DNA of 64,000 nt from Escherichia coli (GTDB lineage Bacteria > Pseudomonadota > Gammaproteobacteria > Enterobacterales > Enterobacteriaceae). The stretch lies in NCBI RefSeq assembly GCF_050320075.1, contig NZ_CP190022.1. One strand, given 5' to 3'. The notes beneath the pieces were generated by a model. It did not search any database, was not told the DNA's origin, and was given only the letters and a program-made list of their open reading frames with translations. Both the position numbers and the translations under genes were made by a program. Shown here one piece after another: positions 26,543-32,067 of the stretch; positions within the stretch are counted from its first letter, which is position 1, and each line of letters opens with the position of its first letter.

Positions 26543-26734
26543 GGGGATTCCTCCATAGATGAATGGATAAATTTCGGGATTAAGTCGGGTGGCATGAATG
26601 CGAATCAGCGCCGGTAATAACCGGACAGGAATGAGTTCAACAGGACATTTTCACAGAGAAGAGCGTGGGAGACAGGTACAAAAAAACCGACTGGTGAGGC
26701 CGGTTTTTTTGCGATTCCGGGGTGGAGTTGGTGG

Positions 26735-26766
26735 CTCTGACCGGAGGAAGTCTCTTTTCAACTAAC
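26735..26766 (+). repeat. Direct repeat A (about 32 bp, CTCTG-CCGGAGGAAGTCTCTTTTCA-CTAAC)
   Basis: Repeated with two mismatches at 26969-27000, 234 bp downstream. Confidence 0.8.
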
Positions 26767-26968
26767 GTTACCAGAATAGCGTTATATTCACCTGATCGCA
26801 ATCTGTCAGTTACAATCTATTATTCTGGGAGTAGCGATATCGCCTGAAACAAGTATAATCAGTAAGTTAGCCTTGTCTGGAGACTTACCTTCGCATCAAT
26901 CCATCGGGACTATGGATCTGTGCTATTCAAAGACCTGGCCGGACAAACAGGTGGTGCTGTGTCTGGTG

Positions 26969-27000
26969 CTCTGGCCGGAGGAAGTCTCTTTTCAGCTAAC
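26969..27000 (+). repeat. Direct repeat B (copy of 26735-26766), 70 bp upstream of the small toxin-like ORF
   Basis: See repeat A. Confidence 0.8.
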
Positions 27001-27071
27001 AATGAGAGAGCTGTTGTGACAGGCAATGTAAGAGTAAGCAGCAGTGATTTCCTCCATTGACGGAGAAACGG

Positions 27072-27167
27072 ATGATTAACCTGTTAATCATCGTTCTCAG
27101 GGCAGTTGTTGCTGTGGTCAATGCAGTGATAGCAATCCTGGAACTGATCCGGGAGCTTATTGACTGA
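27072..27167 (+). CDS. Small hydrophobic peptide (31 aa, MINLLIIVLRAVVAVVNAVIAILELIRELID), TisB/DinQ/ZorO-like type I toxin candidate
   Basis: Not in the 60-aa ORF track; found by reading the intergenic DNA: GGAG 6 nt upstream of ATG 27072, single predicted TM helix, C-terminal ELIR motif as in DinQ; an upstream TTTCCTCC (27048-27055) can pair with the SD. Confidence 0.4.
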   Translation: MINLLIIVLRAVVAVVNAVIAILELIRELID

Positions 27168-27556: not shown

Positions 27557-28024
27557 TTATTTTTTATTCTGTTTCCTCCAGGCCCATGGTGGCACCGGAT
27601 TTTCATCTGCCCATAATCCCCGTTTAAGGGCACGGGCATCGCGCTGGAGAGCCGGGAGAGTATAGTCCTTGTTGTAGTCCGGGTATACCCAGGCCGCTCC
27701 CTTCCTGATTTGCTCACGATTCGCTTCAGTGCCGTCAGCGGTATAGACTCTGCCGAGAATACGGTTATATCTGTCGGTCTGTAAGTATTGTACGGTTACA
27801 GGCTTACCGGCCACCAGGTCTTTTAACTGAGAGGCAGACCAGCGTCCAAAGGGCTGTTTCTTTTCCGGTGCATCAATATTTGCCAGGCGGACCCTGACAG
27901 TTTTTTTATCCTGTAATATTTCCAGTGTATCACCATCAAGAACGCGGATAACGTTTCCCTGAATCTGTGCAGCGCAGAGGGAACCTGAAAAAATAATAGC
28001 GAGAGAGAATATATATTTTATCAT
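27557..28024 (-). CDS. nuc: Secreted thermonuclease (staphylococcal-nuclease fold), plasmid Nuc
   Basis: Signal peptide then SNase motifs (VIRVLDGDTL...VRVRLANIDAPE...GRVYTADG...GLWAD). Confidence 0.85.
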   Translation of the reverse strand: MIKYIFSLAIIFSGSLCAAQIQGNVIRVLDGDTLEILQDKKTVRVRLANIDAPEKKQPFGRWSASQLKDLVAGKPVTVQYLQTDRYNRILGRVYTADGTEANREQIRKGAAWVYPDYNKDYTLPALQRDARALKRGLWADENPVPPWAWRKQNKK

Positions 28025-28187: not shown

Positions 28188-28811
28188 ATGCAGGAACATA
28201 TTGATTATCAGATTGAGAAATATCAGTTCAGGGCCAGGAATGAGTCTCCGCGACTGATGCGCCAGTGGGCAGATGTCATGCGTGAATGCCGTGATACCGG
28301 AGCAGGAGCCAGGGAGCGGCTGCGGATTGCCTTACTTAATGTTGATTATGTGACCAGTTTTGAGCTGCCGTTTCGTCTGCTGTTAACCCGGACACCGCAG
28401 ATGATTGACAGCATGCGGCGGGAATGGCAGCTCAGCCAGAAAAAAGTCGTCTTCAATGAGCGGCAGCGGGGATGTGTATACAGTCTGCAGAATGACTTAT
28501 CCGGCGTGCCGGATAGCTTCAGTTACAGTCTTGCGACGCGAATACGGCGGATGGACTGCTATGGCATGACGACGCGTTGTTTTACTGATATCGCCGGGCA
28601 GGTTAAAGCCCCGACGGCACGGCTGAAACTAGCGCTGGAAAGCGGGTTGCTGGTAACGGCACTGGATGGCCTGTTCTGGCTGGGAACTCAGCGAATTGCA
28701 GCTGATGTGCAGAGACTGCGTCAGTCAGGTATGGTTATAGTCACCCGGGAAGTTGAGGTATCAGACTCCCTGACCGGAACCACCAGACTGGTTTCTGCCT
28801 ACACACTTTAA
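28188..28811 (+). CDS. Hypothetical protein (207 aa)
   Basis: First of three same-strand ORFs in an AT-rich block; no family recognised. Confidence 0.5.
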   Translation: MQEHIDYQIEKYQFRARNESPRLMRQWADVMRECRDTGAGARERLRIALLNVDYVTSFELPFRLLLTRTPQMIDSMRREWQLSQKKVVFNERQRGCVYSLQNDLSGVPDSFSYSLATRIRRMDCYGMTTRCFTDIAGQVKAPTARLKLALESGLLVTALDGLFWLGTQRIAADVQRLRQSGMVIVTREVEVSDSLTGTTRLVSAYTL

Positions 28812-28898
28812 AGCACAGGAGGAATCTTTGTTACCGTATTCGCACTGATTCTGAAATTTACCATTGTTTACCGGGACAGATTACAGACAGGATATTTT

Positions 28899-29354
28899 AT
28901 GCGAGATAAATCAGAAGTATTAACCGGAGCGCAGAAAAACAGATTTGGTCTGATTCTTTATATTATACTATTATCAGTTGTTTATATATTGATAACAAGA
29001 CTTAATCTCACAACCACATATTATTCGCTGTATTCATCTCTGGATGAGAATTCACAGGTGACGGAGTATTTTATAATATCCATAGCTACCTTTCTTTTTC
29101 TGGCGGCTTTATGTTTGTTCTTCATTTATTCTTTCTTTAAACGGAAAAGAGTTGTCGGGAAATTACTTCTGTGTATTTATATTCTTTATATATCACACTA
29201 TGCTATCACTTTTGTTTATTGTCTTTATGTTGTCGGTGCTGAGTGTATGGCAACCGGAAAGATTGAGCATATTTTGATTGATATTATTATAGCCATGCTT
29301 TCTCTTTCGTATGTTTGCCTTTCCGGGAGGGCAAGACATATTTTTGTTAACTAA
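28899..29354 (+). CDS. Hypothetical small integral membrane protein (151 aa, about 4 TM helices)
   Basis: Strongly hydrophobic, AT-rich codon usage; directly upstream of the transferase-like gene. Confidence 0.5.
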   Translation: MRDKSEVLTGAQKNRFGLILYIILLSVVYILITRLNLTTTYYSLYSSLDENSQVTEYFIISIATFLFLAALCLFFIYSFFKRKRVVGKLLLCIYILYISHYAITFVYCLYVVGAECMATGKIEHILIDIIIAMLSLSYVCLSGRARHIFVN

Positions 29355-29532
29355 ATGTATTCTGAGTGTTTTATGGTTATGAGGCCTTCATCGGGTTATG
29401 CGAATAATCTGGTTCGGGGAGCAGTTGCTGTAAGCACAGAACCTGATAATATGTAAATCCTGCTGGACAGGGTAGGGTATTTTTGTGAACTGTTTCATAT
29501 AAATATCCATGCGTTGAAATGATCGTCTGTGT

Positions 29533-31089
29533 TTGTACAGGAAAATGACTGGCGTGTCTTGTATTAAAGAAAAATCAAAATATACTTTTGAGAGAGCAAA
29601 ACAGTTTTATTTTATGTTGTGGTGTAAAGAGTCACTGATTTATCTGTTGTTTTCTGTGCTTGTTACATGGTGTTGCGGATATACAGTGAAAAACACCCTG
29701 GGGAATGTGCTTATATTGTTCCTGATGTTGTTGTTGGGGCGGCAGAATGTTATTTCAGCAACGTGTGTCTGTATCTTTCTTTTGTTAAGTGCATTCTATG
29801 CTCCGGTTGGGATGATTTACGGAAAAATAAACAACAGTTTTATTGCGTCTGTAATGCAGACAAATCTAAATGAGGCAGGTGAATTTATCACAGGCATACC
29901 TGTTCTTTATTTTATTGTTTCACTGATTATTGCTGCTTTTACATTCTGGTTCTGGCGTAAGCGTGATAAAAGCCACCAGGGATTTATCTTTCTGTTGTTC
30001 TTTATCGTATTGTCAGTAAATGCATGGCCAAAACGTATGGTTACGAATGTAATGACAGGGATAGCTGAAACCAGAGAAGAAATGATGCGATATGAATCGC
30101 TGAAACACAATCAGAAAGATTCATGGGATATTGTGAATGTGGAGAAGAAATATAAAACCATAATTATCGTAATTGGTGAAAGTGTCAGACGGGATTATCT
30201 TTCTGTTTATGGGTATCCTTTGCCGACAACACCATGGTTGAATTCTGCTCCGGGTATATTTATTAATGGGTATTTCTCCGCAGCTCCGAATACGATAGGT
30301 TCACTCAGCAGAACACTGACTCTTGATTACACTGAAACAGGTAATCCGGGTAATAATATTGTTACGCTTGCCAGAAAAGCCGGATATGAGACGTGGTGGA
30401 TATCAAATCAGGGCTCTTTAGGGCGACATGATACGCTGATTTCTGTCATCGCCGCCAATGCGGATAAGAAATATTTTCTTAAGGAAGGGAGCTCTTCTTC
30501 CCGTCGCATTGATGATGAAGATATGCTTCAGTATGTCAGGGAAGCTGTTAATTCGTCTTCTCCAAAAGTGATTTTCATTCATATGCTGGGGTCCCATCCT
30601 AATCCCTGTGACAGACTTTTTAATGATGCACAGCCGTTCAGGGAATTATTCGGAAATAAAGTATCCTGTTATTTATCAACATTGCTTAAGCTGGATCGGT
30701 TTCTTCAGGCAATTTATAACATGACGACAGAGCATGGCGATGATTTTGCCATGCTGTATTTTTCTGATCATGGGCAATCCGTCACTTCAGACAGCACCCC
30801 TGTGCATCATGCGCCAGGTTTGCGTTCGGGATACGATGTACCTCTCATGATGATGGCCAGTGATATTACTGAGCACCACCTCAATCATGTGCATATCAGT
30901 GCACGTCGTTTTCCCGAGATTTTTCAATGGATCACAGGGATACAAACCAAAAATCTGCCGTTAAGTTTTTCTTTGTTACAGAATGATTTCGCTGAAAGTG
31001 TTTCTGTATTCAATGGTGAACGTGACGTTCCGGTAATGTCTTTGCCAGAAGAGCCGATACTGACCGGAAATGCTGAATCAGAAAAATAA
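29533..31089 (+). CDS. Phosphoethanolamine-transferase-like membrane protein (N-terminal multi-TM domain + sulfatase/alkaline-phosphatase-type catalytic domain, EptA/MCR-like architecture)
   Basis: Five predicted N-terminal TM helices then sulfatase-type motifs (IIVIGESVRRDY, HMLGSHPNP, YFSDHGQS); alternative start at ATG 29545. Confidence 0.65.
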   Translation: MYRKMTGVSCIKEKSKYTFERAKQFYFMLWCKESLIYLLFSVLVTWCCGYTVKNTLGNVLILFLMLLLGRQNVISATCVCIFLLLSAFYAPVGMIYGKINNSFIASVMQTNLNEAGEFITGIPVLYFIVSLIIAAFTFWFWRKRDKSHQGFIFLLFFIVLSVNAWPKRMVTNVMTGIAETREEMMRYESLKHNQKDSWDIVNVEKKYKTIIIVIGESVRRDYLSVYGYPLPTTPWLNSAPGIFINGYFSAAPNTIGSLSRTLTLDYTETGNPGNNIVTLARKAGYETWWISNQGSLGRHDTLISVIAANADKKYFLKEGSSSSRRIDDEDMLQYVREAVNSSSPKVIFIHMLGSHPNPCDRLFNDAQPFRELFGNKVSCYLSTLLKLDRFLQAIYNMTTEHGDDFAMLYFSDHGQSVTSDSTPVHHAPGLRSGYDVPLMMMASDITEHHLNHVHISARRFPEIFQWITGIQTKNLPLSFSLLQNDFAESVSVFNGERDVPVMSLPEEPILTGNAESEK

Positions 31090-31110
31090 TAAAGATTATT
31101 TATGACCGAG

Positions 31111-31140
31111 CTCAATGCCTCATGTGTATGAGGCATTGAG
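31111..31140. terminator. Bidirectional hairpin terminator between the transferase-like gene and the convergent 80-aa ORF
   Basis: Perfect 13-bp stem CTCAATGCCTCAT-GTGT-ATGAGGCATTGAG followed by CGTTTATTT. Confidence 0.6.
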
Positions 31141-31181
31141 CGTTTATTTCAGGCTGACACTGTTTTCAGCCCATACCTGGA

Positions 31182-31424
31182 TCAGTGAATATGCTGACCT
31201 GTTTTTTCGCGAATATCAGCCCCCTGTAATTGTATCAATATACCCTCTCCGTTGAGCATCAGGCTGTCCAGTGAATGGATCCCACTCCTCCTCATCAGTT
31301 CGTAGCAGAGTGTACTCAGCATGGCAAGTGCAGCTTCTGATGATTTACAGTGTGTATTCAGGAGGGTAAAAAATTGTTCAAAAACATCCGGGTTTATACT
31401 GGTGCTTTGATATTCGTTACTCAT
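31182..31424 (-). CDS. Hypothetical small protein (80 aa from ATG 31424)
   Basis: GGAAGGAAA RBS 7 nt upstream of ATG 31424 (track ORF 31182-31544 has an unlikely N-terminal extension); no family recognised. Confidence 0.45.
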   Translation of the reverse strand: MSNEYQSTSINPDVFEQFFTLLNTHCKSSEAALAMLSTLCYELMRRSGIHSLDSLMLNGEGILIQLQGADIREKTGQHIH

Positions 31425-31608
31425 AGTATTTCCTTCCAGGTCATTATTACTTCCAGATTTAACATGATGTCTGTAACCATAAAATAATGAACGTGTTCCG
31501 GGAATCCTTGCCGTGTAGTTTCCCGTAAAAATACTGTTGTGCATTACATGTCATTAGGTGGAAACCGATTGTGGCAGACTGAAAATCGATTAGAATAGCG
31601 GCGGGCGC

Positions 31609-31902
31609 TTGAGGCTGTATGCTGAAAGCGTTTTGTGGACGGCATGCAGCAGAAAGCCCCAGGCGATTTTTTTATCAATCAACCCAGGGCCCACTGTAAT
31701 GCCTCAACAACATTATAGTAGCCCGATGACGGCCGAAAGGCAATGGAGGGGCTGCGATGCCACAACGAACGTTTTTAATAATGTTAATCGTCGTCTGTGT
31801 GACGATACTGTGTTTTGTCTGGATGGTGAGGGATTCGCTTTGCGGATTTCGTATCGAGCAGGGAAATACAGTGCTTGTGGCAACGTTAGCCTACGAAGTT
31901 AA
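31609..31902 (+). CDS. pndC: Overlapping translational-coupling reading frame of the hok-family module (mok/PndC-like)
   Basis: 97-codon ORF overlapping the toxin ORF in another frame, as in hok/mok and pndA/pndC. Confidence 0.55.
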   Translation: MRLYAESVLWTACSRKPQAIFLSINPGPTVMPQQHYSSPMTAERQWRGCDATTNVFNNVNRRLCDDTVFCLDGEGFALRISYRAGKYSACGNVSLRS

Positions 31903-31909
31903 ACGTTAA
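31757..31909 (+). CDS. pndA: Hok/Gef-family type I membrane toxin (50 aa, MPQRTFLIMLIVVCVTILCFVWMVRDSLCGFRIEQGNTVLVATLAYEVKR)
   Basis: Not in the 60-aa track; found by reading: GGAGGGG RBS, ATG 31757, TM helix followed by the conserved hok-family C-terminal segment; downstream GGCGGCAGG-AAAT-CTGCCGCC hairpin. Confidence 0.85.
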   Translation: MPQRTFLIMLIVVCVTILCFVWMVRDSLCGFRIEQGNTVLVATLAYEVKR

Positions 31910-32067
31910 CGGGCAACATGGCGGCAGGAAATCTGCCGCCGGATTGTTGCGAAAGCAAACCTCAATGCGCCCTTTTTTACCTGGATTTCTGCAGCGCGTT
32001 TCAGCATAGCATGCAGTTCTGTGCTGATCCTTGCTTCCAGTCGGGCAGTTTGTGTTGCTGATGGCAT
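31906..32067 (-). CDS. Small ORF (53 aa, MPSATQTARLEARISTELHAMLKRAAEIQ...), ribbon-helix-helix-like N-terminus
   Basis: Not in track; AGGAAG 9 nt upstream of ATG 32067; stop overlaps the pndA stop on the opposite strand; downstream of the excA terminator; N-terminus resembles RHH / DUF1778-type antitoxins but no partner gene present. Confidence 0.3.
   Translation of the reverse strand: MPSATQTARLEARISTELHAMLKRAAEIQVKKGALRFAFATIRRQISCRHVAR

Follow-up and report, generated by a model that had tools for sequence, protein, structure and literature searches.

The locus described here lies in a 64-kb stretch of Escherichia coli DNA (contig NZ_CP190022.1; 64,000 nucleotides, referred to as the window herein), where three open reading frames (ORFs) on the same strand stand between the thermonuclease gene nuc (27557-28024, minus strand) and the pnd/Hok module. 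An earlier reading made from the letters alone, the sequence-only reading, had taken the three genes for an AT-rich block of acquired cargo inside the transfer region that ends in a phosphoethanolamine (PEtN) transferase gene of EptA/MCR-type architecture. We found that the three ORFs are real, at 28188-28811 (207 aa), 28899-29354 (151 aa), and 29533-31089 (518 aa when read from a TTG codon), but that the cargo is a two-gene cassette comprising a DUF2569-family gene and a predicted PEtN transferase gene of the YjgX clade. The features of the locus are as follows.

28188-28811, plus strand: gene 1, ECs1377 family with a C-terminal winged helix-turn-helix, 207 aa; it flanks the cassette and lies outside it
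28812 to about 31181, plus strand: variable accessory cassette, of low G+C content (GC) and missing in the collinear plasmid pE16-3
28899-29354, plus strand: predicted DUF2569-family inner-membrane protein with four transmembrane (TM) segments, 151 aa
29355-29544, plus strand: 190-bp spacer between the cassette genes, with a terminator-like hairpin at 29457-29478 (consensus scan) and an AGGA Shine-Dalgarno sequence before the ATG at 29545
29545-31089, plus strand: predicted PEtN transferase of the YjgX/OpgE-like clade, 514 aa
31110-31141, plus strand: intrinsic-terminator-like hairpin with a perfect 14-bp stem, a 4-nt loop, and a T-rich tail, GTTTATTTCA

The last gene had been described as an N-terminal TM domain joined to a sulfatase-type protein, and Pfam matches to EptA_B_N (residues 60-153) and Sulfatase (residues 208-467, E 1.6e-38) bear this description out. 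There are three candidate start codons, TTG 29533 (518 aa), ATG 29545 (514 aa), and GTG 29554 (511 aa, the RefSeq choice); the ATG, with AGGA upstream, is kept in every variant examined, and residues are numbered here on the 514-aa form. At the other end of the gene, the downstream hairpin starts 20 nt past the stop codon, and its stem is 100% complementary. The product is predicted to have five N-terminal TM helices followed by a periplasmic domain of the alkaline-phosphatase/sulfatase fold. In an alignment of 26 relatives reaching down to 27% identity, residues E212, T250, H346, H351, D408, H409, and H422 are invariant, and so are T106 and E110 of the PH2 motif, which lies on the periplasmic helices of the membrane domain. 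Upon comparison with NmEptA, we found that E212, T250, H351, D408, H409, H422, and T106/E110 align with E240, T280, H383, D452, H453, H465, and T110/E114; in NmEptA, T280 is the nucleophile, T110 and E114 belong to the substrate pocket, and the roles of Zn ligand (Glu, Asp, and His) and of second-site histidine are likewise assigned (PMC10525099). The nucleophile and the metal ligands, which the sequence-only reading had left to a careful alignment, are therefore all present. Among solved structures, sequence matches were obtained to E. coli EptC (85 bits), NmEptA (36 bits), and MCR-1 (33 bits). An AlphaFold2 model built from the 26-relative alignment reached a mean predicted local distance difference test (pLDDT) score of 87.2 and a predicted template-modelling (pTM) score of 0.79. 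Its top Foldseek matches were the periplasmic domain of EcEptC (E 1e-19, TMt 0.73), full-length MCR-1 (9nww), and full-length NmEptA (5fgn), and the model aligned with full-length NmEptA and MCR-1 over 515-539 columns. Judged by sequence, modelled fold, and the selection described below, the transferase is a genuine PEtN-transferase superfamily member that is kept by selection, and PEtN transfer is predicted for it.

While the superfamily layout and the catalytic residues of the EptA/MCR description stood, its lipid A type did not, as hidden Markov model (HMM) scores, similarity to OpgE, and clade membership all point elsewhere. Every curated NCBIfam equivalog cut-off was missed by a wide margin. 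The MCR models gave 16-28 bits against cut-offs of 1100-1250 (the best being MCR-4 at 28.5, with MCR-1 at 16.7), the EptA models 48.8 and 74.7 bits against 660 or 561, and EptB 34 bits against 493; CptA/EptC scored 107.6 against 404 with the subfamily model and 100.5 against 900 with the domain model, and no OpgE model was matched in the scan. BLASTP against K-12 proteins identified OpgE as the closest paralogue by far (225 bits, 31% identity, and 47% positives over 490 residues that include the membrane domain), with a score more than twice that of EptC (105 bits, 23% identity) and four times that of EptA (56 bits), followed by YhbX and EptB at 90 and 51 bits. In a bootstrapped neighbor-joining (NJ) tree, two alleles of the plasmid transferase pair at 100% and fall inside a 100%-bootstrap clade with YjgX-like proteins of E. 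coli, Salmonella, and Erwinia (49-52% identity); this clade is part of an OpgE-like group that is only loosely resolved, and it stands far from EptA and EptB. One relative cluster (P0024, 51% identity) is named YjgX and sits at the same island edge as K-12 yjgX. On sequence grounds, we assign the transferase to the YjgX clade, whose genes on E. coli genomic islands go by the name "putative opgE".

A known mcr or EptA allele is ruled out by the curated HMM cut-offs together with the clade. Of the two options between which the sequence-only reading could not decide, a known mcr allele and a new gene, neither applies: the gene is already annotated, widespread, and functionally uncharacterised. 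In the AMRFinderPlus rows of PLSDB, the transferase is unflagged, though espP and epeA are flagged in the same tables. Our literature search on IncK plasmids with PEtN transferases, yjgX, and DUF2569 found no paper characterising the cassette transferase, and the pCT paper and the I-complex transposon-directed insertion-site sequencing (TraDIS) paper, with supplements, make no mention of it.

The comparison with known relatives places the enzyme more closely. The YjgX-like island transferases of E. coli and Salmonella, which align with it at 49-52% identity across over 90% of the length, share its domains and catalytic residues, and like the cassette they have moved horizontally, being found next to P4-type integrases on tRNA islands and close to the pap island; they are uncharacterised too. 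The plasmid copies differ from them in forming their own two-allele sub-branch and in occupying an I-complex backbone instead of a tRNA island. They also differ in being mostly intact, whereas many chromosomal YjgX-like copies are truncated and K-12 yjgX is a pseudogene at the edge of the leuX island. The closest experimentally characterised protein is OpgE (YbiP), which has the same predicted topology and catalytic residues but is a core chromosomal gene product, while the cassette enzyme is mobile cargo. Osmoregulated periplasmic glucans receive their PEtN from OpgE, and losing OpgE produced no phenotype in the study that showed this (PMC3818809). EptC/CptA, the PEtN transferase for the heptose-I phosphate of the lipopolysaccharide (LPS) core (PDB 5zzu/6a82), gave the best structure match and the best NCBIfam model, yet only 23% identity. 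MCR-1 to MCR-10 and EptA/PmrC, which act on lipid A in polymyxin resistance, have the same superfamily, fold, Thr nucleophile, and Zn ligands as the cassette enzyme, and the MCR genes are plasmid-borne as it is; they differ from it in identity (16-24%) and in clade, and the cassette enzyme is not flagged for resistance. A precedent for a plasmid-borne PEtN transferase acting on an O-antigen sugar and not on lipid A is Lpt-O (Opt) of Shigella flexneri (PMC3458804), which we liken to the cassette enzyme by description only. Separately, we considered whether a transferase of the small plasmid pOW1E2c (28% identity) might be the Shigella Lpt-O and so give a functional anchor. Its near-identical matches came only from E. 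coli, Klebsiella, and uncultured plasmids, with none in Shigella plasmid records.

Composition and alignment set the limits of the cargo. AT-richness holds for 28812-31183, whose GC of 0.389 is the lowest of any 2.4-kb stretch in the window (mean 0.527, sd 0.052), with 0.331 for the DUF2569 gene and 0.402 for the transferase gene; it does not hold for gene 1, which at 0.534 is backbone-like. When the window was aligned with pE16-3, similarity ran at 97% through gene 1 and ended right after its stop codon. It came back at about 31184, at first weakly and within a small gene of 79 aa on the minus strand, and was firm from 31275 onward; in place of the cassette, pE16-3 has three small genes on the minus strand. 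This break and return indicate that the cargo is a two-gene cassette and not a three-gene block. The 79-aa hypothetical gene (31182-31424, minus strand) shares about 71% DNA identity with its pE16-3 counterpart, compared with 93-97% for the flanking backbone, and this diverged backbone gene blurs the right junction of the cassette. No direct or inverted repeats were found flanking the cassette, which speaks against a transposon-like element, and an Rfam scan gave no match inside it. A phage origin or an anti-phage defence system was also considered and rejected: PADLOC gave no match, PHROG matches were solely to families of unknown function, and no phage record exceeded 27% identity.

Gene 1 itself scored 300.9 bits on NCBIfam NF052300 (ECs1377 family) over residues 17-205, above the cut-off of 190, and showed a weak Pfam HTH_39 match at its C terminus. 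It occurs in about 400 E. coli plasmids, including cassette-less ones at 92-95% identity, and has an omega of about 0.18. A three-gene operon or cargo unit is ruled out, since gene 1 is backbone by GC, distribution, and junction alignment. The co-occurrence of all three genes as a unit, which the sequence-only reading had proposed to check, thus did not hold up: most of the matching genomes have a match to gene 1 only, and it is the DUF2569 and transferase pair that travels. What survives of the acquired-cargo claim is a two-gene cassette at a variable spot of the transfer region.

We then considered how widely this cassette is distributed. The transferase allele of the window is present in 114 PLSDB records (111 Escherichia, 2 Salmonella, and 1 uncultured), of which 108 are predicted to be conjugative. 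Among E. coli plasmid records matching the region, about 110 of 418 have the cassette, and in at least 107 of the about 110 transferase carriers the arrangement is complete, with gene 1, DUF2569, and transferase all in place. A search of 5,426 complete E. coli genomes gave 401 with a match to at least part of the query, which in most cases was gene 1 alone at 92-95% identity. Only 110 carry at least 80% of the block, and 477 of the 478 matching places are on plasmids. The carriers include pECOED (strain ED1a), pO104_H7, and the virulence plasmid pO113 of E. coli strains that produce Shiga toxin (STEC) along with its roughly 160-kb relatives. In database clusters, one chromosomal YjgX-type cluster holds 8,941 member sequences and the plasmid allele 1,955. 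Among the 60 of the 114 PLSDB records listed, most have an annotated, uninterrupted transferase coding sequence; the broken minority is disrupted by IS1, by ISKpn26, by an IS3 that spares no more than the first 138 nt, or by a change of 1 nt in length. The cassette is an ordinary, common accessory module in a variable spot of the transfer-region backbone.

Other I-complex plasmids carry a second allele at the same site, with identities to the window of 75% over the aligned part of the transferase (72% over its full length), 53% for the DUF2569 protein, and 94% for gene 1. The joint divergence of both cassette genes within a conserved backbone speaks for their being a unit. All seven sampled variants have an intact transferase, whose median omega is 0.20. 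Within the same pairs of plasmids, the cassette has a synonymous divergence (dS) of 0.003-0.09, lower than the 0.12-0.17 of gene 1, which fits spread of the cassette by recombination between diverged backbones.

The 151-aa protein, described earlier as having four TM segments, does have four hydrophobic segments (hydropathy peaks at residues 17-35, 58-76, about 89-107, and 125-143) and matches Pfam PF10754 (DUF2569; E 2.5e-8, residues 18-150). Its gene is always 5' of the transferase in both cassette alleles and is intact in nine of nine loci, with an omega of about 0.3 (median 0.30). Between the alleles (window 28899-29354 versus L009 5227-5682), amino acid identity is 53% at a dS of about 1.7, compared with 75% identity for the transferase. 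With omega at about 0.2-0.3, this split reflects deep divergence and not evident positive selection. The database holds many singleton variants of the protein at 84-97% identity, and a homologue search with it returned E. coli plasmid-type sequences only. We infer that the DUF2569 protein is a partner of the transferase. It is not a general neighbor of the enzyme clade, being absent beside the transferase in six chromosomal contexts. Whereas the plasmid copies are preceded by DUF2569, two of the chromosomal loci examined, L002 (7113-9500) and L014 (4054-6503), on E. coli and Salmonella islands, have directly 5' of the YjgX-like transferase a gene for a 242-244-aa outer-membrane protein (OMP) beta-barrel, with a Pfam OMP_b-brl match and weak Opacity/OmpA_membrane matches. 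In K-12 (L025), opgE adjoins ompX. The pairing of a small OMP with a PEtN transferase may be ancestral to the clade, with DUF2569 taking the OMP position in the plasmid cassette.

Based on these results, we propose that the locus is a two-gene accessory envelope-modification cassette whose acceptor is probably a sugar hydroxyl of an envelope glycan and not a lipid A phosphate. The cassette occupies a variable spot of the I-complex (IncK/B/O/Z/I) backbone, between the winged helix-turn-helix gene and the pnd module. By analogy with the family, phosphatidylethanolamine would be the PEtN donor, and T250, activated by Zn2+, would attack it to give a covalent PEtN-enzyme intermediate; PEtN would then be handed to a periplasmic acceptor, completing a ping-pong reaction. 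Going by the clade, the acceptor would be a sugar hydroxyl on a periplasmic glucan, or a sugar of the LPS core or of a surface polysaccharide, and the expected effect is an altered envelope charge or surface chemistry of the plasmid host. The YjgX clade has OpgE as its only characterised close relative, which makes an envelope glycan the likeliest acceptor, and a Photorhabdus relative that adjoins glycosyltransferase genes is a hint, and a hint only, in the same direction. For the class of acceptor, this analogy favors a sugar hydroxyl over a lipid A phosphate weakly. Several observations weigh against the proposal. The grouping of the YjgX clade with OpgE, to the exclusion of EptC and another plasmid transferase, has a bootstrap of only 22-42%. 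An identity of 31% does not ensure that the acceptor specificity of OpgE is conserved, and the best solved-structure match is EcEptC, a modifier of LPS-core heptose phosphate, OpgE being without a structure. In addition, the host already has a core opgE, next to which a second glucan transferase would seem redundant. DUF2569 does not adjoin the chromosomal YjgX-like genes, so its partner role is inference only. Lastly, a promoter scan of the cassette region gave scores no better than shuffled sequence, so that expression is a prediction only.

The alternative closest to the sequence-only reading is that the enzyme modifies LPS, at the lipid A phosphates in the manner of EptA/MCR or at the inner-core heptose phosphate in the manner of EptC/CptA, lowering the negative surface charge and making cells tolerant of polymyxin or cationic peptides. 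The enzyme does share its superfamily, fold, and catalytic set with EptA/MCR, CptA/EptC supplies the best NCBIfam and PDB matches, and the GenBank label is often "lipid A phosphoethanolamine transferase", although that is an automatic name and not a test. Nevertheless, we regard an LPS acceptor of this kind as unlikely given the wide shortfall from every equivalog cut-off, the OpgE score more than twice that of EptC and four times that of EptA in an alignment that spans the membrane domain too, and the lack of an AMRFinderPlus flag in PLSDB tables where other genes are flagged. In a screen with cationic peptides, deletion of K-12 yjgX turned out to be a false positive, which counts only weakly against this alternative since K-12 yjgX is a pseudogene. 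A protein acceptor would be a different departure from the glycan reading: for instance, the enzyme might modify the PilS/PilV subunits of the plasmid type IV thin pilus, much as pilin is modified by Neisseria PptA and FlgG by Campylobacter EptC, and so tune mating-pair formation. The cassette does lie inside the transfer region of a plasmid family that makes such a pilus, and there are protein-modifying members of the superfamily (PMC10525099). However, the pilus is needed by all of these plasmids and the cassette is found in only about a quarter of those sharing the backbone region, and the enzyme's nearest relatives, YjgX-like proteins of about 50% identity, are encoded on chromosomal islands without pil genes. 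No specific similarity to PptA was seen, though no test was aimed at PptA, and the I-complex TraDIS study lists no such conjugation gene, in a plasmid that may or may not carry the cassette. We consider a protein acceptor very improbable.

It is also conceivable that the cassette has no function and is silenced or decaying AT-rich DNA, kept by linkage to the backbone alone. Its AT-richness, the lack of a convincing promoter, the minority of copies broken by IS1, ISKpn26, IS3, or 1-nt indels, and the frequent truncation or pseudogene state of the chromosomal relatives would all fit such a hitch-hiker. Against this, the seven sampled copies are all intact, both genes have an omega of about 0.2-0.3, no catalytic residue has been lost, and the reading frames are open in both alleles despite divergence to 75% and 53% amino acid identity. 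Moreover, a cassette dS below that of the adjacent backbone gene fits recent spread better than passive decay, and we hold a functionless passenger to be exceedingly unlikely.

A further reading would make the cassette a receptor-editing device, in which PEtN placed on the LPS core or another surface glycan of the host cell masks the receptor of a phage, a colicin, or a PilV adhesin. We think this doubtful, with the odds clearly against it. If it were true for the PilV of rival or identical I-complex plasmids, the cassette would provide glycan-level exclusion next to excA. Whichever the receptor, the two diverged alleles (75% and 53%) would reflect diversifying pressure on the masked interaction.

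For surveillance, the automatic label "lipid A phosphoethanolamine transferase" that the plasmid gene often bears may lead to its being taken for a new mcr, and the evidence presented here says otherwise. YjgX-type transferases are common in E. coli, on islands as well as on plasmids that include STEC virulence plasmids such as pO113, and one genome-wide association study picked them up through linkage to the pap island (PMC8946752). The plasmid copy, being intact, selected, and compact, is a convenient handle on the acceptor of the YjgX clade, a question that is incremental within a well-understood enzyme family.

The block region has 100% identity to p1106, an E. coli plasmid from chicken (NZ_MG825371.1) that types as IncK2/Z, MOBP, and MPF_I. 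The public record name, p1106-IncFII, is misleading, since the replicon is IncK2/Z and the transfer genes are those of the I-complex (MPF_I, TraY/ExcA/TrbABC). The layout of the window follows the usual I-complex order, as listed below.

Leading region: parM, ardA, ssb, and psiB/A
After the leading region: nikA/B-type relaxase genes and trbCBA
Next: a type I toxin locus (DinQ-like), followed by the thermonuclease gene and then the block studied
27557-28024, minus strand: thermonuclease gene (nuc), left neighbor of the three-ORF block
31603-31909: pnd module, with a sok-family antisense RNA at 31603-31759 and a Hok ORF at 31757-31909
Right of the block: pnd and its sok RNA, followed by excA, traY, and the remaining transfer genes

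Between trbA and nuc, the type I toxin-antitoxin-like locus (26678-27167) comprises an AgrB-family antisense RNA at 26678-26765 on the minus strand (Rfam RF02891, 52.8 bits against a gathering score of 40) and the annotated DinQ-like toxin gene dqlB at 27072-27167 on the plus strand. On the other side of the block, the sok RNA of the pnd module is a full-length RF01794 match (123.7 bits) that overlaps the start of the 50-aa Hok/Gef (PndA) ORF, and the cassette-less pE16-3 has two Hok/Gef copies at the pnd position. Adjacent to pnd, a 53-aa ORF (31906-32067, minus strand) is identical over residues 1-29 (100%) to the N terminus of a 93-aa DUF1778 (TacA-type) antitoxin. At this position, plasmid L020 has the full DUF1778 antitoxin with its GNAT toxin, of which the window keeps only a truncated remnant, and other plasmids have VapBC or a TnsA-like/sigma70_r4 gene at the same spot. 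This varied content to the right of pnd makes the pnd-excA interval a second variable site.

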